Below, piece after piece: positions 1-20,597 of a stretch of 25,839 bases of DNA (position 1 is the first letter of the stretch; the number at the start of each line of letters is the position of its first letter). The stretch is from a virus. Taxonomy: Duplodnaviria; Caudoviricetes. A program made the position numbers and the translations under genes. Below the pieces are notes generated by a model, which saw only the letters and a program-made list of their open reading frames with translations, was not told the origin of the DNA and ran no database searches. The DNA lies in the IMG/VR virus record IMGVR_UViG_3300020042_002992, positions 1 through 25,839 of that record, one strand, 5' to 3'.

Positions 1-12
1 TGAAATAAAAGC

Positions 13-40
13 TTGACATTTTGAAATAGTTTGATATTAT
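13..40 (+). promoter_or_regulatory. sigma70-type early promoter P1
   Basis: TTGACA (13-18), 16-bp spacer, extended -10 TG-A-TATTAT (32-40); A-rich UP-like tract upstream. Confidence 0.8.
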
Positions 41-87
41 GAATGAGTAGTTTGATTCTTTATCAATTATTAAGAAAGGTATTTCAA

Positions 88-294
88 ATGACTTATACTA
101 TATATTATGGCAAAAAAGAACCATTAAAAGCGGTTGGCAAACATCAAATTAATATGTTGATGTTCGCTGAAAAGTATCAGGGTTGGCATTCTTATTCAGA
201 GGATAAGACAACCTTAAACGCTCTAAACGGGCTATTAAAAAGAAAAGCGATCATTATTAATGACAATAAACAATTCAGAATTAATTATAAATAA
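88..294 (+). CDS. early hypothetical protein (68 aa)
   Basis: The track ORF starts at 43, which lies at or before the predicted +1 of P1. ATG 88 follows SD-like AAAGGT (75-80). Confidence 0.7.
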   Translation: MTYTIYYGKKEPLKAVGKHQINMLMFAEKYQGWHSYSEDKTTLNALNGLLKRKAIIINDNKQFRINYK

Positions 295-307
295 TTTATA
301 AAAGGGC

Positions 308-336
308 TTGACAAATGAAATTAAGTTATATATTGT
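308..336 (+). promoter_or_regulatory. sigma70-type early promoter P2
   Basis: TTGACA (308-313), 17-bp spacer, TATTGT (331-336); A-rich upstream. Confidence 0.75.
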
Positions 337-409
337 GGTTCCTAGTAGGTTGTATCAATCTTTATATGTTTATTTTTTTAATGTTATCTTTATAATAAGG
401 GGTTTAATT

Positions 410-730
410 ATGCACCAATCTATTAATGAGTATCAATTCAGAGACGCTTTTCGATCAATGGGGAGGGGCGATCAATTCACCTATGAGGGTTTAAATATCC
501 TCTTTAATTGGTTAGAACAATATGAGGTGGATACTGGCGAAAGGGTCGAGCTTGATGTCATAGCCTTGTGTTGTGATTTTTCAGAGGATAGCGAAGACAT
601 AATTCGGGGGTCTTATGCTGACATGATGGACGAAGACGAGGACATAGAGGAATTTTTAAACGATAATTCTTTGGTTATTGGTTCGCATGAAATGGACGGC
701 GTGAAGTATTATATTTATCAACAGTTTTAA
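410..730 (+). CDS. acidic early hypothetical protein (106 aa)
   Basis: ATG 410 after SD AAGGGG; the track start 308 is the TTG of the -35 box. D/E-rich (DMMDEDEDIEEF). Confidence 0.8.
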   Translation: MHQSINEYQFRDAFRSMGRGDQFTYEGLNILFNWLEQYEVDTGERVELDVIALCCDFSEDSEDIIRGSYADMMDEDEDIEEFLNDNSLVIGSHEMDGVKYYIYQQF

Positions 731-742
731 AAGGGGCATAGC

Positions 743-820
743 ATGAACTATCTATTATTTAAGGCAACATATCAAAGCATGATGTTTAAACAATCTAAAC
801 AAAGAGAGGCTATAAAATGA
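743..820 (+). CDS. possible 25-aa peptide MNYLLFKATYQSMMFKQSKQREAIK
   Basis: SD AAGGGG upstream; ATGA overlap with the next ORF; below track cutoff. Confidence 0.4.
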   Translation: MNYLLFKATYQSMMFKQSKQREAIK

Positions 821-981
821 CAAGGGCAAACGATATTTTTAAAAATGTTTTAAGGGCTATGCAAGACGCAGAGGAAATTGAGGGAGTAGAAAACCCTCAA
901 GACTATTTAAAACTCATGGAAGACATAAGACATGAGGCTCAAAAACGCTTTAACAATTGTGTTGATAATATGGGGGGGTAG
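817..981 (+). CDS. early hypothetical protein (54 aa, MTRANDIFKNVLRAMQDAEEIEG...)
   Basis: Translated by hand; SD GAGG upstream; fills the gap between neighbouring ORFs. Confidence 0.75.
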   Translation: MTRANDIFKNVLRAMQDAEEIEGVENPQDYLKLMEDIRHEAQKRFNNCVDNMGG

Positions 982-984
982 ATA

Positions 985-1203
985 ATGAAGACTTTATTTC
1001 ATATTGAGCATGAATACGAAATAGACCTAGGGCTTTTAGATGATTCGGACTTATTCGAGGAACTAGAGGAAAGGGGCTATGATGTTGTAGAAGAGGGAAC
1101 GAAAGCCCTCATTGAAGAGATATATAACACAAAAAAGCTAGGGAAACCTTATAACCACTTACTAGAAAAACTAATAGAAGAGACAACAGGGAGGATTTTA
1201 TAA
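985..1203 (+). CDS. acidic early hypothetical protein (72 aa)
   Basis: Track ORF; G-run SD upstream. Confidence 0.75.
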   Translation: MKTLFHIEHEYEIDLGLLDDSDLFEELEERGYDVVEEGTKALIEEIYNTKKLGKPYNHLLEKLIEETTGRIL

Positions 1204-1301
1204 AATAAGTTTTTACAATTTTTTAGTTAAAAATATTTTAACAAGTGGTGTTTTTACCTGTAAATTTTTAAACAATTAACTTTTTTAATAAGGAAAATAA
1301 A

Positions 1302-1526
1302 ATGACAATTAATATTTTGGAACTTGATCAAATATGCGACATTGCAGACAAAGTTTATTTTGATGTTATCGATCATTTGAACATTGAATCAAAATGTGTT
1401 GAATTTGACAAAGACACAAAAGGCACAAAAAACACAGAGTATGGAATGGAGTTATATTATTTAATAGAAGAAGCAGTTAAAAGTGCTATTAACTACAAAG
1501 AAGAAGACGAGGAGGACGAAGAATGA
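1302..1526 (+). CDS. acidic early hypothetical protein (74 aa) ending EEDEEDEE
   Basis: Track ORF; SD AAGGA upstream. Confidence 0.75.
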   Translation: MTINILELDQICDIADKVYFDVIDHLNIESKCVEFDKDTKGTKNTEYGMELYYLIEEAVKSAINYKEEDEEDEE

Positions 1527-1651
1527 AATCATTATTAGCAATCTTATTATCATTCACAATTAATGCTTACGCTTGTACATTAAAGACTTACATTGTAGAT
1601 GGGCGGGTAATTACTTGCAGCATTTGTGGAAATGTTATTAATTGTTCGTAA
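1523..1651 (+). CDS. 42-aa exported cysteine-rich peptide
   Basis: Hand translation MKSLLAILLSFTINAYA-CTLKTYIVDGRVITCSICGNVINCS; ATGA overlap with the previous stop; SD GGAGG; signal peptide with AYA cleavage motif. Confidence 0.7.
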   Translation: MKSLLAILLSFTINAYACTLKTYIVDGRVITCSICGNVINCS

Positions 1652-1672
1652 AAACTTAATGGAGGAATAAAA

Positions 1673-1897
1673 ATGAAATTTTTACCAATAGAAAAAGACG
1701 ACATCATAGAAGCAATAGCTGATTGTGATGAGTGGGGTTATGGGAATAAAGCAACCTGTCATCTAATAGCTGAGCGACTTACTGATAGATTATCAGAACA
1801 AGGAATAGATGCTAAGGCATATTATCAGGACTTTATTTCACTAGCTCATAGTATGAATAGTGGACGCAGTTTTTATGAAATTGAGGTGCAATCATGA
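1673..1897 (+). CDS. early hypothetical protein (74 aa)
   Basis: Track ORF; strong SD GGAGG. Confidence 0.8.
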   Translation: MKFLPIEKDDIIEAIADCDEWGYGNKATCHLIAERLTDRLSEQGIDAKAYYQDFISLAHSMNSGRSFYEIEVQS

Positions 1898-2070
1898 AAT
1901 CTTACAAAGTTAGAATTTTTTATAATGCTTATTTTGATATGTCAGTGGACGCACCCAACGAAGAATATGCTAGAGACATTGTGAACGATCATGCTATGGA
2001 TTATGCACAAGACGCTATACTTTCTTATGACTTCGCAGAAATTGACGAGATAACACAAAATGGACATTAA
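1894..2070 (+). CDS. acidic hypothetical protein (58 aa, MKSYKVRIFYNAYFDMSVDAPNEEYARDIV...)
   Basis: Hand translation; SD GAGGT; ATGA overlap. Confidence 0.75.
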   Translation: MKSYKVRIFYNAYFDMSVDAPNEEYARDIVNDHAMDYAQDAILSYDFAEIDEITQNGH

Positions 2071-2425
2071 TTTCATAGATGCTCAATTAACCTGTATGAG
2101 TGTTGCAATCTACCACGAGGCACATACACAAAGCGAAAGGGCAAAAAAGGCAGTGGGGGAAATTATCTTAAATAGGGTTAAACACAAATCTTTTGGGAAA
2201 ACCCCTTGCGATGTGGTTCACCAAAAAGGGCAATTCGTAGGAGTTTACGATGACACACACAAAGAAGCTACGAGAGAGGATTTTTTAAAAACAAAGCTTA
2301 TAGCGTGGAAAGTGTGGTATAAACCCGAACACATCGTAGGGAATAGACTTTATTTTTATGATGATTCAATTAAATTAAAAAAGCATAAGAACGACTTAAA
2401 GATTGACAACCTGATATTTTACTAA
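2060..2425 (+). CDS. SleB-like cell wall hydrolase (Hydrolase_2 family)
   Basis: Motifs CMSVAIYHEA (catalytic Glu), AVGEIILNRV, CDVVHQKGQF and C-terminal KIDNLIFY match the SleB/CwlJ-type pattern. Confidence 0.8.
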   Translation: MDINFIDAQLTCMSVAIYHEAHTQSERAKKAVGEIILNRVKHKSFGKTPCDVVHQKGQFVGVYDDTHKEATREDFLKTKLIAWKVWYKPEHIVGNRLYFYDDSIKLKKHKNDLKIDNLIFY

Positions 2426-2491
2426 AATTTACAAAGTTTTACATAGTTGTATTTTATTTTAACTCAATTTTTCCTGAAAGGATTTGATAAA

Positions 2492-2590
2492 ATGCTTGAA
2501 ATTATTATAGCTTTTGTGGTAGGATTTATATTCGGATATGTATTAGGAAACCGAGAAAAGAACAACGAAACATATTTTGGAGATTATTAA
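2492..2590 (+). CDS. 32-aa single-TM membrane peptide MLEIIIAFVVGFIFGYVLGNREKNNETYFGDY
   Basis: Hand translation; SD AAGGA; stop abuts the next ATG. Confidence 0.6.
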   Translation: MLEIIIAFVVGFIFGYVLGNREKNNETYFGDY

Positions 2591-2902
2591 ATGAAAACTT
2601 TTAAAGTATATGCAGAGGCAATCGTGCCTTATTACAAAGTTATTGAGGCAGAGAATAAAACAGAGGCTTATTTGAAAGCTACTAAGACCCCTAAAGAAGA
2701 GTTTAGTTTTGCTTATGAAGTGAAGCATGAGGAATGGCACACTAACATTAATGACATGGAAGAGATTTTAGACTTTCCTTCATGGATAATGGAACATCAT
2801 AATAATAGATTTACGGCTGACCTAGCAGACGCTATGGAAGACACTGATTTACAAGATGATTATATGGATTTTTATGGACTTTCTGAAAGGGACATGGTAT
2901 AA
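2591..2902 (+). CDS. hypothetical protein (103 aa)
   Basis: Track ORF; SD GGAG; acidic C-terminal half. Confidence 0.8.
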   Translation: MKTFKVYAEAIVPYYKVIEAENKTEAYLKATKTPKEEFSFAYEVKHEEWHTNINDMEEILDFPSWIMEHHNNRFTADLADAMEDTDLQDDYMDFYGLSERDMV

Positions 2903-2997
2903 TGTTAAGTGATACGCTACTTTATTATCGTAATGCAAAAAGATATTTAAAACTTTTGGAGAAACAAAATGATAAACGCATGGCTACAAAAAACTAA
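2902..2997 (+). CDS. possible 31-aa basic peptide MLSDTLLYYRNAKRYLKLLEKQNDKRMATKN
   Basis: TAATG overlap with the previous stop; overlaps the next ORF by 29 nt. Confidence 0.35.
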   Translation: MLSDTLLYYRNAKRYLKLLEKQNDKRMATKN

Positions 2998-3181
2998 AAA
3001 CTTTGGAGAGTATAAGATAGTTTACTTGACAAAAAACACTTTTAATTTCTTTTGGGGATATGGTTGGGAATCACAAGCAAAATTTAAACGAGATGGTAAA
3101 ACATTTACACTTATTCAAAGACCTACTCGAAGCTTACCAAGAGAAGTTAATGTTATTCTTTCTAAAATGATTGGGGTATGA
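2969..3181 (+). CDS. hypothetical protein (70 aa)
   Basis: Track ORF; SD GGAG. Confidence 0.7.
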   Translation: MINAWLQKTKNFGEYKIVYLTKNTFNFFWGYGWESQAKFKRDGKTFTLIQRPTRSLPREVNVILSKMIGV

Positions 3182-3182
3182 G

Positions 3183-3389
3183 ATGAGATGTATCGCCTGT
3201 AATGCTTTATTATCAGATTATGAATCAACACGAAAAAGCCAAACGACAGGGGAATACTTAGACCTATGCAATCATTGTTTAAACGACATTAAGAATGATT
3301 TGCTTTACATGGAACGAGAAGACCTAGCTAGTAAAGAAACACCTTCAGATGAAGATCATCATGACTTTATAGAATGGAAAGACCTATGA
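3183..3389 (+). CDS. small zinc-finger protein (CxxC...CxxC)
   Basis: MRCIACN...LDLCNHC; ATG 3183 directly after the previous stop is preferred over TTG 3171. Confidence 0.75.
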   Translation: MRCIACNALLSDYESTRKSQTTGEYLDLCNHCLNDIKNDLLYMEREDLASKETPSDEDHHDFIEWKDL

Positions 3390-3616
3390 AAAAACCTGAC
3401 GCATGGCTTTACGAAGAGTTTGACACGAATGGGGAACTACGATCAAGTCAGATATGGACATTTTTACCCTCTGATTTAAAACAAACTATTAAACTTAAAG
3501 ATGTCCATCATGTAGAACTTACACCGATGTATTTAGACTTAAAAGAAAAGCAAGTGTATAATAAAGAAAACAAGTTTGATTCTAAAAAACTCGTAGAGGC
3601 ATTTTGTGGACTTTAA
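3386..3616 (+). CDS. hypothetical protein (76 aa)
   Basis: Track ORF 3374-3616; ATG 3386 gives an ATGA overlap with the upstream stop. Confidence 0.7.
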   Translation: MKKPDAWLYEEFDTNGELRSSQIWTFLPSDLKQTIKLKDVHHVELTPMYLDLKEKQVYNKENKFDSKKLVEAFCGL

Positions 3617-3776
3617 TTATGCTATTATAGATGAATTTGGCGACATTTTACGCAAGTATAGATGGTCAGCTAAAGAAGCTAAATGGCATAAGGAACAAGG
3701 TAAAACCATTATTAAATTAGAAGTAGAGAAACAAAAACCTTTTAACACTAACGACTATGAGGAATGTCTATTTTGA
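3606..3776 (+). CDS. hypothetical protein (56 aa, MDFNYAIIDEFGDILRKYRW...)
   Basis: Hand translation from GTG 3606; SD GAGG; fills the gap before primase. Confidence 0.65.
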   Translation: MDFNYAIIDEFGDILRKYRWSAKEAKWHKEQGKTIIKLEVEKQKPFNTNDYEECLF

Positions 3777-4495
3777 GTCATTTTCTATACAATGAGAGAT
3801 GCCCTAAATGCAGTGCCAATGGTGCTGACAAATCAGGAAACAATCTAGCAGTTTATTCTGATACGCATAAGTATTGTTTTGCTTGTGGTTATCACGATAG
3901 AGGGGACATTGTAGAGAAATACAAGGATCGTTTAAACACTGTAGTAGAAAAGAAATCTTTCATGTCATTCAATAAAGCTCAATTTATGGACGCTAAGGGA
4001 ATGACCTACCTTAAAAAATATGGACTAACAAACGATGAAATCAATAAAAATTATTTTTGGGATAGTGATGGCTATTTGGTATTTGATGGTGGTAGCTATC
4101 AAAACGCTAGAAACTTCACTGGATTAGGTGCTAAGTATATGACTAGGGGAGTTATTCGCAATAATGAACCCATTATGCAGAATACGCAAAATGATAGTGT
4201 AATTATTGTAGAAGATGCAATTTCTGCTATAAAAGTTAGTAGAGTGCTACCAAGTGTTCCAATACATAACTCAATTATACCCCTAGAACTCATTTTAAGG
4301 CTCTCTAAACAGTTTAAAAAACTTTTTGTATGGCTCGATAAGGATAAAAGTTTATCGGCTCTTAAACAGGCAGGAAATGCGAAATTACTTTTTGATGAAG
4401 TAAGAACAATTTGGACTGATCTCGACCCAAAATGTTATTCAGAAACAGAGATTAAAAAATATTTAAATGTTATTGACATGGAGAAACAAGTATGA
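3764..4495 (+). CDS. DNA primase (T7 gp4-type Zn finger + TOPRIM), not fused to helicase
   Basis: CPKC...NLAVYSD.HKYCFACG zinc-binding domain; TOPRIM VIIVEDAISA and WLDKD. The true start may be in-frame TTG 3773 (TTGA overlap, better SD spacing). Confidence 0.9.
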   Translation: MSILSHFLYNERCPKCSANGADKSGNNLAVYSDTHKYCFACGYHDRGDIVEKYKDRLNTVVEKKSFMSFNKAQFMDAKGMTYLKKYGLTNDEINKNYFWDSDGYLVFDGGSYQNARNFTGLGAKYMTRGVIRNNEPIMQNTQNDSVIIVEDAISAIKVSRVLPSVPIHNSIIPLELILRLSKQFKKLFVWLDKDKSLSALKQAGNAKLLFDEVRTIWTDLDPKCYSETEIKKYLNVIDMEKQV

Positions 4496-4501
4496 TAGAA
4501 T
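4473..4501 (+). promoter_or_regulatory. sigma70-type promoter overlapping the primase stop and helicase start
   Basis: TTGACA (4473-4478), 17 bp, extended -10 TG-A-TAGAAT (4493-4501). Confidence 0.75.
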
Positions 4502-5712
4502 TAATTATTATTAAATATATATTAAATAATATAATATATAATAAATATATAAATAATATTATAATAACAAACAAAGAACTTGTCAAGCTTCTTTATTGTG
4601 TTAAATCTTTACAGGAATCTTCTGATAAAGAACAATACACCATTGACGACCTAGAACTAAAATTCTTCTCAGATTATCCATTCTTAAAAGATGTTGAAAA
4701 GGAAATGTTCAATACAATCTTCGATAAGCTTCGTGGATTGGAAGTTGACGACACTCGGATTGAGGAATATCTCGACAAACAACGATCAGCAGTTATGGCT
4801 CGTGAGGTTGCAGAAATGGCTCTTGAAGTCACTGAGGGCAGAAAAGACTTTAACGAGATTCTTGACAAAATCTCTAAGATGGATATTGACAGACCAAACG
4901 AGGAAGAGATTACATTCGTCACTGATGACCTAGAGGAACTCTACGAGTCTCAAGTGACTACAAAGGGACTTCGTTGGAGATTAAATTGTCTCAATCAATC
5001 TTTGGGTAGTCTTAGACAAGGGGACTTTGGGTTTCTATTCGCTAGACCTGAGACTGGTAAGACAACATTCTTGGCTAGTGAAGTCACACACATGGCTACA
5101 CAAGCTGAGGGTAATATTCTTTGGTTCAACAACGAGGAACAAGGCAAAAAGGTTATGCTAAGATGTATCCAATCATCACTTGGTTTATCTCTACCTGAGT
5201 TGTATAGTGATTTAAAAGGGCATAAAGAAAAGTTTAATAATATTACACAACATAAGATTAAAATCTTTGACCAAGCCTCAATTACCTACAAAGATGTCAA
5301 TAAAGTTTGTGAGCAGATTAAACCTAGTTTAATTATATTCGACCAGATAGATAAGATTAAAGGATTTGAAGAGGATAGGAATGATTTGATGTTGGGTTCT
5401 ATTTACCAATGGGCTAGAGAACTTGCTAAAGACTATGCACCAGTGATTGCAGTGTGTCAAGCTGACGGATCAGGTGAAGGAGTTAAGTGGCTTAACATGG
5501 GTAATGTTGCTAATGCTAAGACATCTAAACAAGCGGAAGCAGATTGGATACTAGGCATTGGTAAGACGAATGACGAGGGCTTGGAGTATATGAGGCATTT
5601 CTGTATCTCTAAGAACAAACTTGTAGGGGATAACGATTCAATACCTGACATGAGACATGGCAAGTTTGATTGTGTTATTAAACCTGATGTTGCAAGATAT
5701 GTAGATGTGTGA
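4492..5712 (+). CDS. replicative DNA helicase, DnaB/T7 gp4 (SF4) family
   Basis: Walker A ARPETGKT, FNNEE, Walker B IIFDQ, AVCQA, KQAEADWIL, ISKNK. Confidence 0.92.
   Translation: MIELIIIKYILNNIIYNKYINNIIITNKELVKLLYCVKSLQESSDKEQYTIDDLELKFFSDYPFLKDVEKEMFNTIFDKLRGLEVDDTRIEEYLDKQRSAVMAREVAEMALEVTEGRKDFNEILDKISKMDIDRPNEEEITFVTDDLEELYESQVTTKGLRWRLNCLNQSLGSLRQGDFGFLFARPETGKTTFLASEVTHMATQAEGNILWFNNEEQGKKVMLRCIQSSLGLSLPELYSDLKGHKEKFNNITQHKIKIFDQASITYKDVNKVCEQIKPSLIIFDQIDKIKGFEEDRNDLMLGSIYQWARELAKDYAPVIAVCQADGSGEGVKWLNMGNVANAKTSKQAEADWILGIGKTNDEGLEYMRHFCISKNKLVGDNDSIPDMRHGKFDCVIKPDVARYVDV
4499..4567. other. 69-bp tract with no G or C (candidate unwinding element / origin)
   Basis: Directly visible; contains an imperfect ~30-bp-period duplication (TAAATATAT at 4512 and 4542; AAATAATAT at 4524 and 4551). 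Confidence 0.6.
4558..4586 (-). promoter_or_regulatory. antisense full-consensus sigma70 promoter inside the helicase gene
   Basis: + strand TGTCAA 4581-4586 (= TTGACA) and ATTATA 4558-4563 (= TATAAT), exactly 17 bp apart. Confidence 0.75.
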
Positions 5713-5718
5713 TAGAAT
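5690..5718 (+). promoter_or_regulatory. sigma70-type promoter for the polymerase N-half (probably leaderless)
   Basis: TTGCAA (5690-5695), 17 bp, TG-A-TAGAAT (5710-5718); the ATG lies 7 nt after the -10. Confidence 0.7.
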
Positions 5719-5724
5719 ATAGAT

Positions 5725-6885
5725 ATGAACACAATAATCTTAGATGTAGAAACAACAATCCATGCTAATGGAAACCCATTCTCTGAAAGGAATAAACTTT
5801 GCTATGTCGGACTTCATCATAATAATGTTTCTAGTTTATTTGATATTGAATATAGTGGAAATCCGTACAGGGAGCAACTTAACGCTATACAGAATGTGCT
5901 TGACAATGACGCTATTCTTGTTGGCTTTAACATTAAGTTTGACTTGCACTGGATAAGAAAATATGGAATTAATTTTGTGGATAAGCGTGTGTGGGATTGT
6001 CAGTTGGTACATTTTATACTCACTAACCAACAGAATCCCTATCCTTCACTTAATGGTGTCGCTGAGTACTATGGTTTGGGTAGTAAGCTTGATGTTGTTG
6101 CTACTGAGTATTGGGGCAATGGGATAGACACACCTGATGTTCCTAAAGACATTCTTGAAGACTATTTGAAACAAGACTTGCTTCTAACAGAGGCAGTGTT
6201 TAAACGGCAGTATGAGGAAGTAATGTCTCTACCTTCAGAACGACAACGATTGATTAGCTTACACAATCAGGACTTGCTTGTTTTAGAAGAGATGGAGTAT
6301 AATGGAATTTTATTTGATGAAGATAGGAGTTTAGAACTTGGTGCCTTACTGGAAAAGGAAGTCGGATTACTTGATGAGGAATTGGCTAAAACTTTTAATA
6401 TTGATGGTTTTAACTTTAATAGCAAAGATCACCTCAGTTGTCTTTTGTATGGTGGAAGGATTACTATACCCAAGAAAGAAGTTATCGGAGTTTATAAAAC
6501 TGGCGAGAGAAAAGGGCAAGTAAAAGAAGGGTGGAAAGATCATCACTATGACTTGCCTAGATTAATTGAGCCACTAAAAGGGAGTGAATTAAAAAAAGAT
6601 GGGTACTATAGCACAGATGAACAGACGCTTAGAAGTCTTAGGGGCACAGGAGTTTCTAAAGGAATTATTCAACTTATCCTTAAACGGAGTGGACTTGAAA
6701 AGCGTAGAGGGACTTACTATTCAGGACTCCCTGAACTCAGAGAGAATCAAGGTTGGAGTAAAGGTTCGCTACATGGACAACTCAACCAGTGCGTTGCTAG
6801 AACTGGTCGCCTTAGTTCCTCAAAGCCGAATCTACAAAATTTTGATGGAGAAATAAAAGAACTGTTTTATTCACGATTTATTTAA
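5725..6885 (+). CDS. polA: family A DNA polymerase, N-terminal part (3'-5' exonuclease + thumb + first palm region)
   Basis: ExoI ILDVETT, ExoII VGFNIKFD, ExoIII YLKQD; ends HGQLNQCVARTGRLSSSKPNLQN...KELFYSRF. Confidence 0.92.
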   Translation: MNTIILDVETTIHANGNPFSERNKLCYVGLHHNNVSSLFDIEYSGNPYREQLNAIQNVLDNDAILVGFNIKFDLHWIRKYGINFVDKRVWDCQLVHFILTNQQNPYPSLNGVAEYYGLGSKLDVVATEYWGNGIDTPDVPKDILEDYLKQDLLLTEAVFKRQYEEVMSLPSERQRLISLHNQDLLVLEEMEYNGILFDEDRSLELGALLEKEVGLLDEELAKTFNIDGFNFNSKDHLSCLLYGGRITIPKKEVIGVYKTGERKGQVKEGWKDHHYDLPRLIEPLKGSELKKDGYYSTDEQTLRSLRGTGVSKGIIQLILKRSGLEKRRGTYYSGLPELRENQGWSKGSLHGQLNQCVARTGRLSSSKPNLQNFDGEIKELFYSRFI

Positions 6886-6894
6886 GGAGAACTT

Positions 6895-7125
6895 ATGTTT
6901 ATTAAATTAACAAACGCAACAAAAGAATATGCTGGTGAACAACTCATTATTAACATTGACCATGTTTTATCTATCTTTGAATTACAAGATAAAAGATTTG
7001 ACGATGATAATGTAGAGTTTGAAGTTTCTGTATCAAACCTGTATACTACTACACAACAATCTTATATTGTTGAAGAGTCAGTAAAGGATATTTATAAACT
7101 TATTGAGGAGAAGCAAAATGGGTGA
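6895..7125 (+). CDS. 76-aa protein resembling the FlbD/SwrD-like family, between the polymerase halves
   Basis: Strong SD AAGGAG; pattern MFIKLT...G...IN.D.V..I...YIVEESVKDI recalled from the FlbD family; not verified by search. Confidence 0.6.
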   Translation: MFIKLTNATKEYAGEQLIINIDHVLSIFELQDKRFDDDNVEFEVSVSNLYTTTQQSYIVEESVKDIYKLIEEKQNG

Positions 7126-7309
7126 TGAAATTGATTATGATTATGATTATGATGTACCTGATATGAACCCTTCAGAAGATGAAGCATACTTCTATCATAC
7201 TCTTGGAGACTTTGAGAGTTATGTTAAAGACTTAGGTGCTAAGTATGTTTTAACAGAGATGAATGAGGATGTTAGAAAGCTTTTAGAAGAAGCGTTTAAA
7301 CAATGCTAA
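7118..7309 (+). CDS. 63-aa acidic hypothetical protein, between the polymerase halves
   Basis: SD GAGGAG before ATG 7118 (track start TTG 7103 is less likely); DEIDYDYDYD encoded by a GATTAT x3 repeat. Confidence 0.75.
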   Translation: MGDEIDYDYDYDVPDMNPSEDEAYFYHTLGDFESYVKDLGAKYVLTEMNEDVRKLLEEAFKQC

Positions 7310-8022
7310 TTCAGGGCGATGCCTCTGCTCTTGAGTGGAGATGTGCTGCATTTTTAAGTAAGGATAAAGTAGCCTATGAAGAGATATGGAATGATGTCGA
7401 TCAGCATACTGATAATCAGAATCGCTTTGGTTTGCCTAGTCGTCTTATTGCTAAGACATTTGTATTCAGACTTATTTATGGAGGAAGTGCTTACTCCTAC
7501 GCTAATGATCCAAACTTCGCTGAGGTAAGTAAGAGTGAGAAGTTTTGGCAAGGAATTATTGATGAGTTTTATAACAAATATAAAGGACTTCATAAGTGGC
7601 ATATTAAACTTATGCAAGAAGCTACAACGACTAAGATGGTTAAACTTCCTACTGGTAGAATCTATCAGTTTGAACCTGAATTAAGACGAGGGGAGAAGGT
7701 TTTCCCTCGCACCACAATTCTTAACTATCCTGTTCAAGGACTTGGTGCAGACTTAATGACACTAGCAAGAGTATCTTTATATAACCGAATGAGGAAATTA
7801 AACTATGAAAAGGCGAGACTTGTTAATACAGTTCATGATTCCATTATCATTGATTGTGATAGTGGTTTTACTGATACTTTAGCTAAGACAATGTTAGATG
7901 TATTTGAAGATGTTCCTAAGAACTTTCAGAAGATGTTTGGGACTGAATTTGACCTCCCAATGAAGGCAGAAGTACAGGTTGGAAATAATTGGAAAGATAT
8001 GGAAATTTGGGTTGACAAGTAG
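7303..8022 (+). CDS. polA: family A DNA polymerase, C-terminal catalytic part (motifs A, B, C)
   Basis: Motif A LIQGDASALEWR, motif B RLIAKTFVFRLIYG, NYPVQG, motif C VNTVHDSII. Confidence 0.93.
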   Translation: MLIQGDASALEWRCAAFLSKDKVAYEEIWNDVDQHTDNQNRFGLPSRLIAKTFVFRLIYGGSAYSYANDPNFAEVSKSEKFWQGIIDEFYNKYKGLHKWHIKLMQEATTTKMVKLPTGRIYQFEPELRRGEKVFPRTTILNYPVQGLGADLMTLARVSLYNRMRKLNYEKARLVNTVHDSIIIDCDSGFTDTLAKTMLDVFEDVPKNFQKMFGTEFDLPMKAEVQVGNNWKDMEIWVDK

Positions 8023-8039
8023 TATGGATATGGTATAAT
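8012..8039 (+). promoter_or_regulatory. sigma70-type promoter upstream of the putative SSB operon
   Basis: TTGACA (8012-8017), 16 bp, TG-G-TATAAT (8031-8039); short hairpin TAGTCT/AGACTA near +1. Confidence 0.8.
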
Positions 8040-8082
8040 ATATGTATAGTCTTAGTAAAAGACTAATTTTAAAGGAGTATTT

Positions 8083-8577
8083 ATGATTATAGAAATTATT
8101 GATGTAGGTTCACCTGAGTCAGTGAAGACTGGTAAAGGACAATATCAGACATTACAAGTTAGTTTCAAGAATGAACAAGGGCAAGTGCAAGGTAAGAAGC
8201 TTATGTCATTCAGCAATCCTACAGTGTTTAAAGACATTCAAGGGTATGCTAAAGGTGATCGTTTAGATGTCCTTACTGTTAAAGAAGGTGATTACTGGCA
8301 GTGGAAGTCTATTGACAAAGAAGGTGAAGCTCCTCCAAGAGCAGAAGCCCCTAAATCAACTGGTGGCGGTGGTAAGGTCATTGGTAGCAACTATGAGACA
8401 GCAGAAGAAAGAGCTAGACGACAAGTGTATATCATTCGTCAATCTTCTCTTGGCACTGCGGTGGAATTGTTAGGTCAAGGTGCATCAGTAAATGATGTAG
8501 TAAAGACTGCTAAACAGTTCGAGGCTTATGTCTTCTCTAAAGAAGCTGAACTAGCAACGGAAGAGTCTCCAGCATAA
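8083..8577 (+). CDS. putative single-stranded DNA-binding / recombination protein
   Basis: Own promoter and strong SD AAGGAG; beta-rich aromatic N-domain, Gly/Pro linker, acidic tail; located between pol and exonuclease. Function is inferred from context. Confidence 0.45.
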   Translation: MIIEIIDVGSPESVKTGKGQYQTLQVSFKNEQGQVQGKKLMSFSNPTVFKDIQGYAKGDRLDVLTVKEGDYWQWKSIDKEGEAPPRAEAPKSTGGGGKVIGSNYETAEERARRQVYIIRQSSLGTAVELLGQGASVNDVVKTAKQFEAYVFSKEAELATEESPA

Positions 8578-9254
8578 TGGAAGCTTTGATGGATGGCGAT
8601 ATTTACGCATTTAGAGTAGCTTGTACTACCGAGAATGATAACGAAGCTATCGCTGTCTATCGTGTCAATGAGATGATTGAGAATACTTTAGCTGAGGTGG
8701 AAGCATCTGAGTATAAATTATTCTTGACATCTCCTGACAATTTCAGGAAGCACATTTATCCTGAATACAAGGCTAATCGTACTGCAACCAAACCTAAGCA
8801 CCTACAATTCCTTCGAGACTATCTAGTAGAGAGTTGGCAAGGAACAGTTGCTGAGAAGATGGAAGCAGACGATTATCTTGGTATCAATCAAAATGAATCT
8901 AGCATCATCTGTTCTATAGATAAAGACTTGTTGCAAGTGCCTGGAAAGCACTACAACTTTGTTAAAAAAGAATTCTATGAAGTAGATGAAGAAACTGGAT
9001 TTAGAAACTTCTACACACAACTTCTCACAGGTGATACTTCTGATAACATAAAAGGTATAGCAGGTATTGGACCAGTTAAGGCTAAGAAAGCTTTAGCTGA
9101 TTCTTTCACTGAGCAAGAAATGTTTTCTGTAGTTAGAGATATGTATAAGAATGATGAATGGATGATAATGAATGGAAGATGTTTACACATCCTCAGATCA
9201 TTAGATGATGATTGGACAAATCATTTTGAAAGGTTAGCACTTGGCGACAAATAA
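8577..9254 (+). CDS. 5'-3' exonuclease / flap endonuclease (T7 gp6, T5 D15 family)
   Basis: DGD, YKANR, EADD, SIDKDL, GDTSDNIKGIAGIGPVKA (H3TH motif). Confidence 0.93.
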   Translation: MEALMDGDIYAFRVACTTENDNEAIAVYRVNEMIENTLAEVEASEYKLFLTSPDNFRKHIYPEYKANRTATKPKHLQFLRDYLVESWQGTVAEKMEADDYLGINQNESSIICSIDKDLLQVPGKHYNFVKKEFYEVDEETGFRNFYTQLLTGDTSDNIKGIAGIGPVKAKKALADSFTEQEMFSVVRDMYKNDEWMIMNGRCLHILRSLDDDWTNHFERLALGDK

Positions 9255-9621
9255 GGAATGGACTGAAGGTCGCTTAAAATCATTTATAACTTCTACCCTA
9301 AGAGGTGGATTTAGAAGGTACCCCCCAAAATATGAATCTCTTAAAGAAGCTCAAGTTGGTAAGAAAATTAACAACAAATCTCAACGCTTGGCTATGCACT
9401 ATGAATGTGGTAAATGCAAAGGGCATTTCCCTGCTAAGGAGGTTCAAGTGGATCACATACTTCCTGTGGTCTGCCCTAAGAAAGGATTCGAGTCGTGGGA
9501 TATATTTATTGCACGGCTCTTTTGTTCATCGGATAATCTACAAGTACTCTGCAAAGGTTGTCATGACATCAAAACAAAAGACGAAAGGGTAAAGCGTGTT
9601 AGTAAAAGGACTAAAACCTGA
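9241..9621 (+). CDS. HNH endonuclease (Zn-binding)
   Basis: CGKC...VQVDHILPV...NLQVLCKGCH. Confidence 0.88.
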   Translation: MATNKEWTEGRLKSFITSTLRGGFRRYPPKYESLKEAQVGKKINNKSQRLAMHYECGKCKGHFPAKEVQVDHILPVVCPKKGFESWDIFIARLFCSSDNLQVLCKGCHDIKTKDERVKRVSKRTKT

Positions 9622-9787
9622 TGGCTCTTTTGAGAGTGTAGAAATAGACGAACAAGAAGAAGAAATATTATTAAAGATTGTATCAAGATATATAACTAAC
9701 AACTGTGTACTAGAACAAACGGAAGATGGTCATGAGATTCATTTGCACTACCTTCCTGATTGGATATTTGAAGGGAAAATGCAATGA
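9596..9787 (+). CDS. hypothetical protein (63 aa)
   Basis: Track ORF tiling between neighbours; ATGA overlap with the next ORF. Confidence 0.6.
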   Translation: MLVKGLKPDGSFESVEIDEQEEEILLKIVSRYITNNCVLEQTEDGHEIHLHYLPDWIFEGKMQ

Positions 9788-10056
9788 GTAAAAATGACAT
9801 AACAGGTGATTCAATTAGAAGTAAACCATTATCTAAAGAAGCAGAAGATAACTGGGATCGTATCTTTAAAAAACAAGGCATTACTTTAACTGAAGAAGAG
9901 TTAGCTGATGTTGAAATTATTGCAGATATTGTACAACATCATCATGATAAGAAATTAGATTATGAATATGAGTTAAATAAAAGTACAGGTGATGTAGAGA
10001 AAAGATTTAAAGATGGTGTATCTAAACCTAATGGAGAACAGTTTAATGACGAGTAA
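9784..10056 (+). CDS. hypothetical protein (90 aa)
   Basis: Track ORF; N-terminal NDITGDSI...NWDRIF. Confidence 0.75.
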   Translation: MSKNDITGDSIRSKPLSKEAEDNWDRIFKKQGITLTEEELADVEIIADIVQHHHDKKLDYEYELNKSTGDVEKRFKDGVSKPNGEQFNDE

Positions 10057-10798
10057 AATACTGCTACTAGATATTGAAACCAGTCCTAATACAGCTCATG
10101 TATGGGGTATATGGGATCAGAACATTGGGTTAAACCAATTACTTGAATCCTCTTATACTTTATGCTATGCTGCTAAATGGCTAGGTAAGAAAGAAGTTAT
10201 ATTTGACTCTGTGAATAAGTCGTCACAAAAGAAGATGCTACAAGGTATTCATAAACTTCTAGACGAGGCTGATGCAGTCATTCACTACAATGGTGCTAGG
10301 TTTGACATACCAACACTTAACAAAGATTTCATTCTTAATGGATTAACACCTCCTGCTCCGTTTAAACAGATTGACTTGCTACAAGTTGCTAAGAGACAAT
10401 TTAGATTTGTTTCTAATAAACTTGACTATGTTTCTCAAGCACTAGGACTTGGTAAGAAAACTGCACATGAAGGACATGAGCTTTGGATTAAATGTATGAA
10501 CAAAGACCCACAAGCTTGGAAGACTATGGAGAAGTATAATAAGAATGATGTAATCCTCTTAGAGAATGTCTATCAACGCTTTAAGCCTTGGATTAAGAAT
10601 CACTTGAATTTATCTGTCTTATCTGAAGATGGTTTAGTCTGCCCTAATTGTGGTGGAAAACATCATCAGAAGAGAGGGTATGCAGTCACTGCTAGTGCTA
10701 AATATCAACGCTTCCAATGTCAAGGATGTGGTAATTGGTTTAGAGGTACTAAGAGTATTAGTCATAAAACAGGAGAGAAATATGTCAACATCACTTAG
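10046..10798 (+). CDS. RNase H-fold DEDD 3'-5' exonuclease with C-terminal zinc ribbon
   Basis: LLDIETSP, HYNGARFD, YNKND; CPNCG...CQGCG. ATG 10046 after SD GGAG is preferred over 10013. Confidence 0.85.
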   Translation: MTSKILLLDIETSPNTAHVWGIWDQNIGLNQLLESSYTLCYAAKWLGKKEVIFDSVNKSSQKKMLQGIHKLLDEADAVIHYNGARFDIPTLNKDFILNGLTPPAPFKQIDLLQVAKRQFRFVSNKLDYVSQALGLGKKTAHEGHELWIKCMNKDPQAWKTMEKYNKNDVILLENVYQRFKPWIKNHLNLSVLSEDGLVCPNCGGKHHQKRGYAVTASAKYQRFQCQGCGNWFRGTKSISHKTGEKYVNIT

Positions 10799-10988
10799 TA
10801 AACAAATTGGAGGGGATCATTATAAGAAATTTACTATACAACCTATCGAGTTTATAACTAAAAACAATATCCCTTTTATAGAGGGAAACATAATTAAGTA
10901 CATTTGCAGATGGAAAGACAAGGGTGGTAAAGCTGACCTAGATAAAGTCATTCACTATGTAGAGTTGCTAAAAGAATTGAAAACATGA
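10782..10988 (+). CDS. DUF3310 family protein (T7 gp1.7 nucleotide kinase-like)
   Basis: QIGGDHY...IQPIEFI...GNIIKYICRWKDKGG..DLDK..HY; SD AGGAG before ATG 10782. Confidence 0.85.
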   Translation: MSTSLSKQIGGDHYKKFTIQPIEFITKNNIPFIEGNIIKYICRWKDKGGKADLDKVIHYVELLKELKT

Positions 10989-11164
10989 TAACATTAACAG
11001 AATTACAAGAAAAGATTATTGAACAAGTTTCAGAGGTAGATTTAATTGATCTTCTCGGACTTACTACTGAGGATTTAGTCTATGCTTTCCAAGACAAAAT
11101 TGAAGATAAGTACGACAAGTTGGTCAATGAACTGGAACTTGGAGATAGTTCTTCCTCCGATTAA
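10985..11164 (+). CDS. acidic hypothetical protein (59 aa, MITLTELQEKIIEQVSEVDLIDLLGLTTEDLV...)
   Basis: Hand translation; ATGA overlap with the DUF3310 stop. Confidence 0.75.
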   Translation: MITLTELQEKIIEQVSEVDLIDLLGLTTEDLVYAFQDKIEDKYDKLVNELELGDSSSSD

Positions 11165-11195
11165 TTTATATAACTACGCTATAAGAAAGAAACCA

Positions 11196-13046
11196 ATGGA
11201 TAAAAGTCAAAAGATATTAAGTGACATAACCATATTTAATAAATATGCTAAATATGTCCCTGAAGCACAAAGAAGGGAAACTTGGGAAGAGTTAGTCAGT
11301 CGCAACATGGTAATGCACATGAAGAAATACCCACAACTGAAAGAGGAAATTAAAGATGTTTACAAATATGTTTACAATCGTCAAGTATTGCCTTCAATGC
11401 GTAGCCTTCAATTTGGAGGTACTCCTATTGAACTTAGCAATAATCGTATGTTCAATTGTGCTTATTCCCCTGTCGATCATCCTGCCGTTTTCAGCGAGAC
11501 CATGTTTAACTTACTTGGCGGAAGTGGCGTGGGCTTCAGCGTTCAACGCAGACACACAGATAGACTCCCTACTATCCTTGGTCCATCCGCTAAACAACGA
11601 CGATTCTTGGTAGGAGATTCTATTGAGGGTTGGGCTGATTCTATTAAAGTATTAATTAAGTCTTATACTCTTGGTAAATCTGACCCAGTATTTGACTTTA
11701 GAGATATTAGACCTAAAGGTGCTAGACTTATTACCTCAGGTGGTAAAGCTCCAGGTCCTGATCCATTACGAATCTGTTTAGATAAGCTACGCAGTGTTCT
11801 TAACAATGCTGTTGGTCGTAAGCTAGAACCTATTGAAGTACATGACATGATCTGCCATATTGCTGATGCTGTTCTATCAGGTGGTATTCGTAGAGCTGCC
11901 TTAATCTCTTTATTCGATAAAGATGATATGGATATGATGTCAGCTAAGACTGGTACATGGTATGAACTCAACCCACAACGAGGTAGAGCTAATAATTCAG
12001 TAGCTTTAAATCGTGAAGAGATCACAGAAGAAGAATGGTTCTCTATTTGGAAACGAGTAGAACAATCAGGTGCAGGTGAACCTGGAGTGTTTTGGACTAA
12101 TAACTATGATGTGGGTACTAACCCATGTGCTGAAATTAGTTTAAGACCTAATTCCTATTGTAACTTAGTTGAGGTTAATGTATCAGATGTAACTACACAA
12201 GAGGAACTTAATGCTCGTGTTAAAGCTGCTACATTCATTGGTACACTACAAGCTGGATACACTGACTTCCATTATCTAAGAAGTGTATGGAAAGAAACTT
12301 CAGAAGAAGATGCACTACTAGGTGTTTCTATGACTGGTATTGCTTCAGGTGGTGTTCTTAAACTTAACTTAGCTGAGGCTGCAAATGTTACTAAAGAAGA
12401 AAATAAACGAGTGGCTAACATCATTGGCATCAATGAGTCAGCTAGAATTACTACAGTTAAGCCTGCTGGCACTACTTCTCTTGTACTTGGTAGCAGTAGT
12501 GGTATTCATGCTTGGCATAATGACTATTATGTTCGTAGAATGCGTGTAGGTAAGAATGAACCATTATATAGATATATGACATCAACAGTACCTAGTCTAA
12601 TAGAAGACTGTGTATGGAAGCCCCACTTAGAAGCTGTTATGAGTTTCCCTCAAAAAGCTCCTGAAGGTTCTATCCTTCGCACTGAAAGCTATAAAGACAT
12701 CTTAGAAAGAGTTAAACGCTTTAATATAGAGTGGGTAGCTAATGGTAATAATAGAGGTGATAATAAGCATAATGTATCATGCACTATCTCTCTAAAGAAT
12801 GATGAGTGGGCTGAATGTGGTAAGTGGATGTGGGAGAATCGTTATAACTATACTGGTATCTCTGTACTACCTTACGATGGAGGCACTTATGTTCAAGCCC
12901 CATTTGAAGACTGTACTAAAGAAACCTTCGAGGAAATGTTTAAACATCTTCAAGAAATAGACTTAACGAAAGTAATTGAAACTGACGACCATACGGAAGC
13001 TAAAGATAATTTGGCTTGCAGTGGCGGAACTTGTGAGGTTAATTAA
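11196..13046 (+). CDS. nrdJ: class II adenosylcobalamin-dependent ribonucleotide reductase (monomeric RTPR-like), 616 aa
   Basis: MFNC, GGSGVG, GGIRRAA, TNPCAEI, CNL, TTVKPAGTTS, C-terminal CSGGTC; no nrdB small subunit nearby; start moved to ATG 11196. Confidence 0.88.
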   Translation: MDKSQKILSDITIFNKYAKYVPEAQRRETWEELVSRNMVMHMKKYPQLKEEIKDVYKYVYNRQVLPSMRSLQFGGTPIELSNNRMFNCAYSPVDHPAVFSETMFNLLGGSGVGFSVQRRHTDRLPTILGPSAKQRRFLVGDSIEGWADSIKVLIKSYTLGKSDPVFDFRDIRPKGARLITSGGKAPGPDPLRICLDKLRSVLNNAVGRKLEPIEVHDMICHIADAVLSGGIRRAALISLFDKDDMDMMSAKTGTWYELNPQRGRANNSVALNREEITEEEWFSIWKRVEQSGAGEPGVFWTNNYDVGTNPCAEISLRPNSYCNLVEVNVSDVTTQEELNARVKAATFIGTLQAGYTDFHYLRSVWKETSEEDALLGVSMTGIASGGVLKLNLAEAANVTKEENKRVANIIGINESARITTVKPAGTTSLVLGSSSGIHAWHNDYYVRRMRVGKNEPLYRYMTSTVPSLIEDCVWKPHLEAVMSFPQKAPEGSILRTESYKDILERVKRFNIEWVANGNNRGDNKHNVSCTISLKNDEWAECGKWMWENRYNYTGISVLPYDGGTYVQAPFEDCTKETFEEMFKHLQEIDLTKVIETDDHTEAKDNLACSGGTCEVN

Positions 13047-13204: not shown

Positions 13205-13229
13205 AAAGGGGCTTAATTGCCCCTTTTTT
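13205..13229. terminator. bidirectional rho-independent terminator between the convergent arms
   Basis: AAAGGGGC-TTAATT-GCCCCTTT hairpin, with a T-run on + and an A-rich run upstream (U-tract on -). Confidence 0.9.
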
Positions 13230-19900: not shown

Positions 19901-20542
19901 TTAACTAGGATACCAAGTAGTTTCGTCTACTCTTTGACCATTCTCAATAGCAATAAGGTCAGCTAACATATTTCTATAACGCATCTCTTGGTCTTGATTA
20001 CCACCATCTTCACCTCTTTCAGCAATTGCTCTAGCAAGTGTTGCTTCAATAAGAAGCGTATAAGGTATTTGTACTACTTCAGTGTCAAGAGTTAAGTCAT
20101 CTTGTGGCATAACTACATTAAAGCGTAATGTGTAAACAGCGTCAGGTATAGGGAATACATCTACTTGAGAATCACCATAGACAGTAACACCATTAAAATT
20201 GTAGTATATTGGACTACCTTTTTGTGGATCTGCTAATAATAGATGAGCTTCAAACCATCTACCATCTCTTGGTTGCATAAAGTAATTATCTGTATCATTA
20301 ATAACTTCTAAAACTCTAAAGCGAGTTCCAGCACCACGAAGGACATAGTTGAATAGATCAGGAGCAGTGGTAGCTGTAAGAGTTGTTCTTAAAACAGACC
20401 AGTTCCAAGCATCTTCTATCTCTCGTTTGGATACATTAACAAGTTCACCAATAAGAGCACTATATGAGTTTTCACTCACAGAGGCTACAGTTGGTTCTCT
20501 TAATCTTCGTAAAACCTTATTGACAACTTCTAAATAAGTCAT
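19901..20542 (-). CDS. tail tubular protein A / head-tail adaptor (T7 gp11-like)
   Basis: [16 protein letters not shown]...WNW...FPIPD; size and position. Confidence 0.75.
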
Positions 20543-20568
20543 GTATTATTTTCCCAGTATATATAACA

Positions 20569-20597
20569 ATTATACCATAATTATGGTTTAATGTCAA
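20569..20597 (-). promoter_or_regulatory. full-consensus sigma70 promoter for tail/ejection genes, with a palindromic spacer
   Basis: - strand TTGACA (20597-20592), 17 bp, TG-G-TATAAT (20577-20569); palindrome ACCATAATTATGGT at 20574-20587. Confidence 0.85.

Follow-up and report, generated by a model that had tools for sequence, protein, structure and literature searches.

A promoter-flanked A/T-only tract at the primase-helicase junction of a Zobellviridae-like podophage: a candidate transcription-activated replication origin

Why should the replicative helicase gene of a phage open with 69 consecutive base pairs free of G and C, set between two promoter-like sites that face each other? The question is raised by a 25,839-nt stretch of viral DNA (IMG/VR record IMGVR_UViG_3300020042_002992, positions 1 to 25,839; hereafter the window), a record of a 69% complete phage in which a candidate element of 114 bp lies across the junction of the primase and DnaB-like helicase genes. 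A first-pass annotation, made from the letters alone, had described this element as a convergent pair of sigma70 promoters bracketing a G/C-free tract and had proposed that it is a transcription-activated origin of replication. Both promoter-like sites and the tract are indeed there, the tract lying in frame inside the helicase open reading frame (ORF; 4492-5712):

4473 to 4501, + strand: forward sigma70-type promoter, 11/12 consensus with an extended -10 TG; predicted start near 4508; orthologue of a family-wide junction promoter
4499 to 4567, no strand: A/T-only tract of 69 bp, rich in TA steps, spanning one -10 box to the other; predicted DNA unwinding element
4558 to 4586, - strand: reverse sigma70-type promoter, 12/12 consensus with a 17-bp spacer, facing the tract; predicted start near 4551; clade-specific
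4480 to 4484, + strand: Shine-Dalgarno sequence of the helicase, within the forward promoter spacer; unchanged in 14 alleles amid variable spacer positions

On the comparative sequence evidence this is a real, selected DNA element, and we consider it reasonably probable that it is a host-polymerase, transcription-activated replication origin resembling T4 oriF, to which the facing promoter would be a recurrent addition.

Within the window the tract stands far from its surroundings. The second-longest A/T-only run is 25 bp, and the longest runs in Markov simulations were 28 and 31 bp (200 runs each); the tract is also the least stable 70-bp window in the 25.8 kb (z 6.1; next 3.3), and all-A/T codons at 22 positions have a P of ~0.0015 given the peptide and the codon usage of the window. 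The two predicted starts are 43 bp apart. Weak consensus sites occur in the genome at chance level (64 found vs 52 +/- 8), and there are only two 12/12 sites within positions 1-13000, the reverse site being one of them. An imperfect duplication with a 30-bp period, reported by the first-pass annotation inside the tract, turned out to be weak and non-significant: 30 bp is the best lag between 20 and 40, with 28/39 matches, and 9% of 5000 shuffles reach it. With significant direct repeats thus absent, an iteron/initiator origin of the lambda, P4 or SaPI type was rejected. A structured RNA was rejected as well, as Rfam gave no match at E up to 0.1 in 3500-6000 and the predicted folds, computed without a shuffle control, are modest. 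RNA contigs from 9 runs had matches, in small shares; four were aligned on 4600-6900 and gave 11 short pieces, which carry no start or strand information.

Is it the protein or the DNA that is being kept? Close relatives (88-100% helicase identity) provided 35 locus records, a number in which the window itself is included and some contigs are counted repeatedly. Both sites and the 69-bp run are present in 30 of the 35, and the element recurs in 13 distinct non-insertion alleles, which rules out the assembly artefact that the first-pass annotation had allowed for. Silent variation across these 13 alleles touches 3 of the first 33 helicase codons and 228 of the 373 others, in a count whose sites and alleles are not independent. 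Moreover, the -35 box of the forward promoter is invariant in 14 alleles while the bases on both of its flanks vary; as the Shine-Dalgarno sequence is equally invariant, the comparison indicates that this stretch at the primase end is read at once as protein, ribosome site and promoter, in keeping with the overlapping coding that had been proposed.

A more direct answer comes from alleles in which the junction has been interrupted. The remaining 5 of the 35 records (two contigs, L006 and L011) carry a 130-amino-acid endonuclease ORF inserted between primase and helicase. L006 (94% helicase identity) is the only one of the two that extends far enough to show the rebuilt element. Here the insertion point is downstream of the original -35 box, which has come to head a 12/12 forward site, followed by a non-coding A/T-only tract of 72 bp and then by an 11/12 reverse site, the distance between the -35 boxes being 113 bp, identical to that in the window; an additional forward promoter serves the inserted endonuclease gene. 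At the helicase start of L006, on the other hand, the forward promoter is lost, codons 4-25 have gained 8 G/C and residues have changed; the A/T codons are thus not required by the protein, and insertion alleles show that its N-terminus tolerates C, R, E, T, S and A here. A non-coding promoter-tract-promoter array beside a relaxed helicase start argues that the tract is a DNA element and not a protein constraint; together with the frozen silent sites, this natural experiment supports the claim of constraint beyond the protein. We also considered whether such tracts generally accompany endonuclease cassettes and rejected this, since none of 99 other distinct endonuclease homologue regions has <=3 G/C per 60 bp upstream. 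A second, independent insertion, in L196/L197, encodes a protein 44% identical and sits on a separate branch of the helicase tree (a quick search without bootstrap, with 19/53 branches open, used only for well-supported near clades); its helicase start is relaxed too, and the forward promoter is retained. As a separate observation, different endonuclease genes occupy the same primase-helicase junction in L006, L196/L197 and L416 (at least three lineages), and in L006 and L197 the helicase 5' end is also altered, as expected for homing at the junction.

How far does the arrangement extend beyond the close relatives? A first set of 182 loci with a helicase match yielded 143 with sufficient upstream DNA, forming 54 clusters at 80% identity; a held-out set of 140 usable new loci contained 71 outside the earlier clusters, forming 43 more, 97 in total. 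We defined the junction zone as -900 to +220 of the helicase start and scored the A/T-richest 60-mer in loci of at least 4 kb. The locus-wide A/T-richest 60-mer fell in the junction zone in 41/46 loci of the first set (6.0 expected) and 38/43 of the held-out set (6.8 expected), that is, in 79 of the 89 long loci. A forward promoter lay directly before it in 30/54 clusters of the first set (1.6 expected; 6 for the next A/T-richest window) and in 17/43 of the held-out set (1.1 expected), so that overall 47 of the 97 clusters have a forward sigma70-type promoter just ahead of their A/T-richest window. The promoter-plus-unwinding-tract anatomy put forward for the window is therefore common across the family. 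Tracts are not a general companion of strong promoters, an explanation that we rejected: the 60 bp after the promoter hold a median of 8 G/C at the junction (n 30), whereas the median after strong promoters elsewhere is 18 (n 54). The 22 promoter-tract rows compared (21 clusters) together hold 677 TA + AT steps, with 466 expected; no homopolymer is longer than 4, and A outnumbers T in 20 of the rows. The tract is intergenic in QDWS535, ctOsX528 and L229 and coding in L036, L214 and the window clade. Its sequence is unconserved across clusters while its low stability is kept, which matches the replaceable unwinding element described for T4 oriF in the available text of PMC3016281. The marine OM43-phage clade shows a mere mild dip inside the helicase start, and ICP2 (33% identity) has no tract. 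In many relatives the forward promoter is 36-157 bp upstream of the helicase start, and in the window it would still feed the downstream polymerase genes, which it likely transcribes; an mRNA role is thus possible, against the first-pass view that this is no ordinary mRNA promoter. We noted separately that 8/54 clusters (L037, L206, L027, L223, L225, L229, L218 and L057) have no ATG, GTG or TTG near the helicase start and have instead a ribosome site right before ATA, ATT or ATC, likely non-canonical starts.

The facing promoter has a different history. Within the preset zone it was found in 2/54 and 0/43 clusters. L416, a 46%-GC phage, missed the zone by 8 bp; it has a wholly non-coding arrangement of forward promoter, tract of ~130 bp and perfect reverse promoter, followed by an HNH gene. 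Widening the zone brought the count to 3/97 clusters. Such rarity does not look random, as three of the four perfect reverse-strand sites in 722 kb face the tract (a zone making up 2% of the sequence; P 3e-5, seed included). At the same time, the facing promoter is absent from sister clades at 62-71% identity, and this absence, with the count of 3/97, points to a derived, recurrent add-on and not to a part of the core. The convergent pair can thus no longer be taken as the conserved unit: of the conservation that the first-pass annotation proposed to examine, that of the tract and forward promoter is widespread, while the facing promoter is confined to the 3 clusters. The facing promoter could aid opening, prime leftward synthesis or merely regulate, and its role is less certain than that of the core.

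Whole genomes add a second tract. In 10/12 near-complete relatives, G003 and MEP401 being the exceptions, one of the two least stable windows falls in the junction region; in G006 and G009 the junction tract is weak and lies 650-870 bp upstream. Six of the 12 (G001, G004, G002, G008, QDWS535 and ctOsX528) have a second tract (z 5.4-7.8), in each case adjoining a promoter-like site (weak in G002):

~4456 to 4590 of L263 (G001): second promoter + A/T-only tract, 70-130 bp; also in G002, G004, G008, QDWS535, ctOsX528 and L016/L017

In those inspected (G001, QDWS535 and ctOsX528) it lies at the boundary of the late and early arms, with a hairpin after it in G001; the window stops short of this region. 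According to the available text on cobaviruses (PMC6775973), direct terminal repeats lie in a gene-free region between the arms, and by analogy the second tract is likely to be near the genome end, possibly as a terminal origin or an end-processing signal. As further observations, the second tract is often followed by a GC hairpin, with C-runs 140-600 bp further on, and two pieces of G009 (L289 and L290, at ~24650 and 42190) have related promoter + pyrimidine-rich stretches, at the junction and at a distant site, in place of TA tracts.

What kind of phage is this? By its genes the window is a Zobellviridae-like podophage. Among cultured phages its helicase is closest to those of the Methylophilales phages MEP401/402 (50%), which are filed under Zobellviridae, and of Alcaligenes phage QDWS535 (45%). 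The rightward arm runs in the order primase, DnaB-like helicase, split family A polymerase, exonucleases and ribonucleotide reductase:

3764 to 4495, + strand: DNA primase gene (ORF with PHROG 239/47 matches); its final codons contain the -35 box of the forward promoter
4492 to 5712, + strand: DnaB-like replicative helicase gene (Pfam DnaB_C, PHROG 19); the element lies within codons 1-33
5725 to 8022, + strand (5725-6885 and 7303-8022): split family A DNA polymerase genes (Pfam DNA_pol_A)

The leftward arm converges on it at a two-way terminator (13205-13226), and GC skew tracks the coding strands and arms and is uninformative on the origin. A search of the window and five near-complete relatives for a single-subunit RNA polymerase (PF00940), in which no positive control matched, found none. 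The pqqA gene is present in one 96%-identical relative and in MEP401, which makes a methylotroph host likely. The PqqA precursor genes (23 amino acids; TIGR02107) are at 4659-4727 (-) in L263, at 41902-41970 (-) in L272 (MEP401), and in L016 and L017; the MEP401 copy is absent from its GenBank annotation and from the available text of its paper, and viral pqqA has been reported from Lake Baikal (PMC7678222, in the part available). Other promoter-like sites were seen in passing: a perfect forward promoter at 8012-8039 of the window, ahead of a 164-amino-acid ORF at 8083; a perfect forward site seen again in many relatives, 3-4.5 kb beyond the start of the helicase gene; and, at 5690-5718 of the window, a weaker extended -10 site that overlaps the helicase stop immediately before the polymerase gene.

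Anatomy, DNA-level conservation, mobility between coding and non-coding DNA and a twin near the start of the late arm in several relatives are established by sequence. From the T4/T7-like anatomy with host-type promoters, and the apparent lack of a polymerase of the phage's own, we infer transcription from the sites, unwinding and priming, that is, opening and priming driven by host transcription. Transcription from the forward promoter by host sigma70 RNA polymerase would open the neighbouring A/T-only tract; the transcript would then either remain hybridised as an R-loop or leave the bubble open, and either would load the phage helicase and prime the phage Pol I-type polymerase, as at T4 oriF. 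The facing promoter would help to open the tract from its other end, supply primers for the opposite strand, or reduce the activity of the forward promoter.

Several observations weigh against an origin of this kind or limit how much the counts can carry. Clusters share ancestry, so their counts are not independent events; only 39/97 clusters reach <=6 G/C per 60 bp, and MEP401 and G003 have a weak element or none. The rebuilt element of L006 is represented by a single contig and may have arisen by duplication (gapped score P 0.012). In L196/L197 the tract is short (12 G/C in the next 60 bp), and L198 (63% identity), a relative of these, has no tract or promoter near the junction; both cases count against an absolute need for the element there. 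(The primase region of L198, at ~2050-3000, appears frameshifted and abuts the helicase without a tract or junction promoter, a defective copy or an assembly error.) For the facing promoter, it is missing in 94/97 clusters, its zone was widened after L416 had been seen, and its test includes the seed. Moreover, the late arm of the window has a facing sigma70 consensus pair without an A/T-only tract (20520-20597; 11/12 forward, 12/12 reverse with extended -10), which shows that facing sites alone are not unique.

Could the element instead be purely regulatory, its TA-rich tract nucleating a host silencer of A/T-rich DNA, or its promoters acting as a switch, by collision or by antisense RNA, to set the timing of the replication-operon promoter and lower the level of primase or early transcripts? 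In many relatives the forward promoter does precede the start of the helicase, antisense RNA from the reverse promoter would run into primase, and the tract composition would fit H-NS-like proteins, which prefer TA steps over A-tracts. However, other strong promoters do without tracts, the gene downstream of the L006 tract, which lies between facing promoters, has a further promoter of its own, and the terminal twin in G001 leads to a hairpin and not to a gene; we regard this explanation as unlikely. Less likely still is a DNA-processing site other than the primary origin, such as a recombination entry point, or a concatemer or terminal-repeat processing signal of the genome end that was duplicated internally. 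The twin does have the terminase/portal arm on one side and the early arm on the other, a position in which direct terminal repeats are found in cobaviruses (PMC6775973, available text), and endonuclease genes have entered the junction in at least three lineages, but the internal copy has no obvious packaging use, and origins are themselves recombination hot spots in T4, to judge from the title of a reference.

The tract might also be a by-product of low-structure 5' codons that favour translation, of an Ile/Asn/Tyr/Lys-rich N-terminus, or of slippage or mutation bias beside a promoter. The 5' ends of genes are often A/T-rich, and the marine OM43-phage clade has no more than its mild dip inside the helicase start. 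Yet tracts are wholly or mainly intergenic in L006, L416, QDWS535 and ctOsX528, the protein accepts other residues here in insertion alleles, and the silent sites are frozen; the non-coding cases already largely refute this reading, and we give it very little weight. Going beyond the origin reading favoured here, we can offer a broader proposal only tentatively: a large family of polymerase-less podophages might use sequence-free, G/C-less origins, each defined only by a TA-rich tract and the host sigma70 promoter beside it, with as a rule one such origin inside the genome and another at its end. In some lineages a head-to-head form, with two host polymerases opening a single tract and priming in both directions, may have arisen repeatedly; here this form would be placed in the helicase frame and rebuilt upon endonuclease invasion.

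The available passages of the MEP401 paper do not mention promoters or AT-rich DNA (matches to 'origin' are unrelated), nor do those of the cobavirus paper (PMC6775973), and the element is not described in the available passages of a Pseudomonas phage transcriptome paper; searches on Zobellviridae origins, convergent-promoter origins and related terms found no description, in a coverage that leaves out most subscription papers. How T7-like replisomes initiate in phages without an RNA polymerase of their own is unaddressed in the portions of the literature found. The present analysis gives a candidate of defined length, a cultured phage with the same core (QDWS535) and natural variants with and without the element, as well as a simple rule for recognising such elements in many environmental phages. 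If true, an origin with a facing promoter would be a new geometry for transcription-primed initiation.

Among known systems the nearest by gene content are Zobellviridae-like phages (MEP401/MEP402, QDWS535 and the cobaviruses), which share the gene order primase, helicase, split polymerase, exonuclease and reductase, the two arms, and helicases 44-50% identical; QDWS535 has both the junction promoter-plus-tract and the twin, whereas MEP401 has no marked tract. The first-pass annotation took T7 as its model, whose primary origin has an A/T-rich tract and whose phiOR lies at the right end. Promoter dependence would be shared: T7 origins, primary and secondary, all require a promoter, and the primary origin (phi1.1A/phi1.1B) and phiOR share with the present system a Pol I-type polymerase, a ring helicase and the pattern of one internal and one secondary origin (PMC8373140, in the text available). 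However, T7 depends on an RNA polymerase of its own, and its promoters are in tandem and co-directional, whereas here the sites are sigma70-type and no single-subunit polymerase was found. The closer model is T4 oriF (ori(uvsY)) and oriG (ori(34)), which, in the available text of PMC3016281, are ~100 bp long and consist of a promoter followed by an A+T-rich unwinding element that can be exchanged for another sequence, with a transcript that forms an R-loop, primes the leading strand and admits the helicase. The likeness at the sequence level is a promoter, read by host-derived RNA polymerase in T4 and predicted to be read by that of the host here, directly upstream of the unwinding element; at the comparative level it is replaceability, as tracts here differ across clusters yet keep their low stability. 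At the same time, T4 uses MotA-dependent middle promoters, one per origin, whereas here there are plain sigma70-type boxes with a -35 consensus, a G/C-free tract in the helicase frame and a second, facing promoter. The element would thus work like an origin of the T4 oriF type, but by its sequence falls outside the T4 class on promoter type and outside the T7 class on polymerase.
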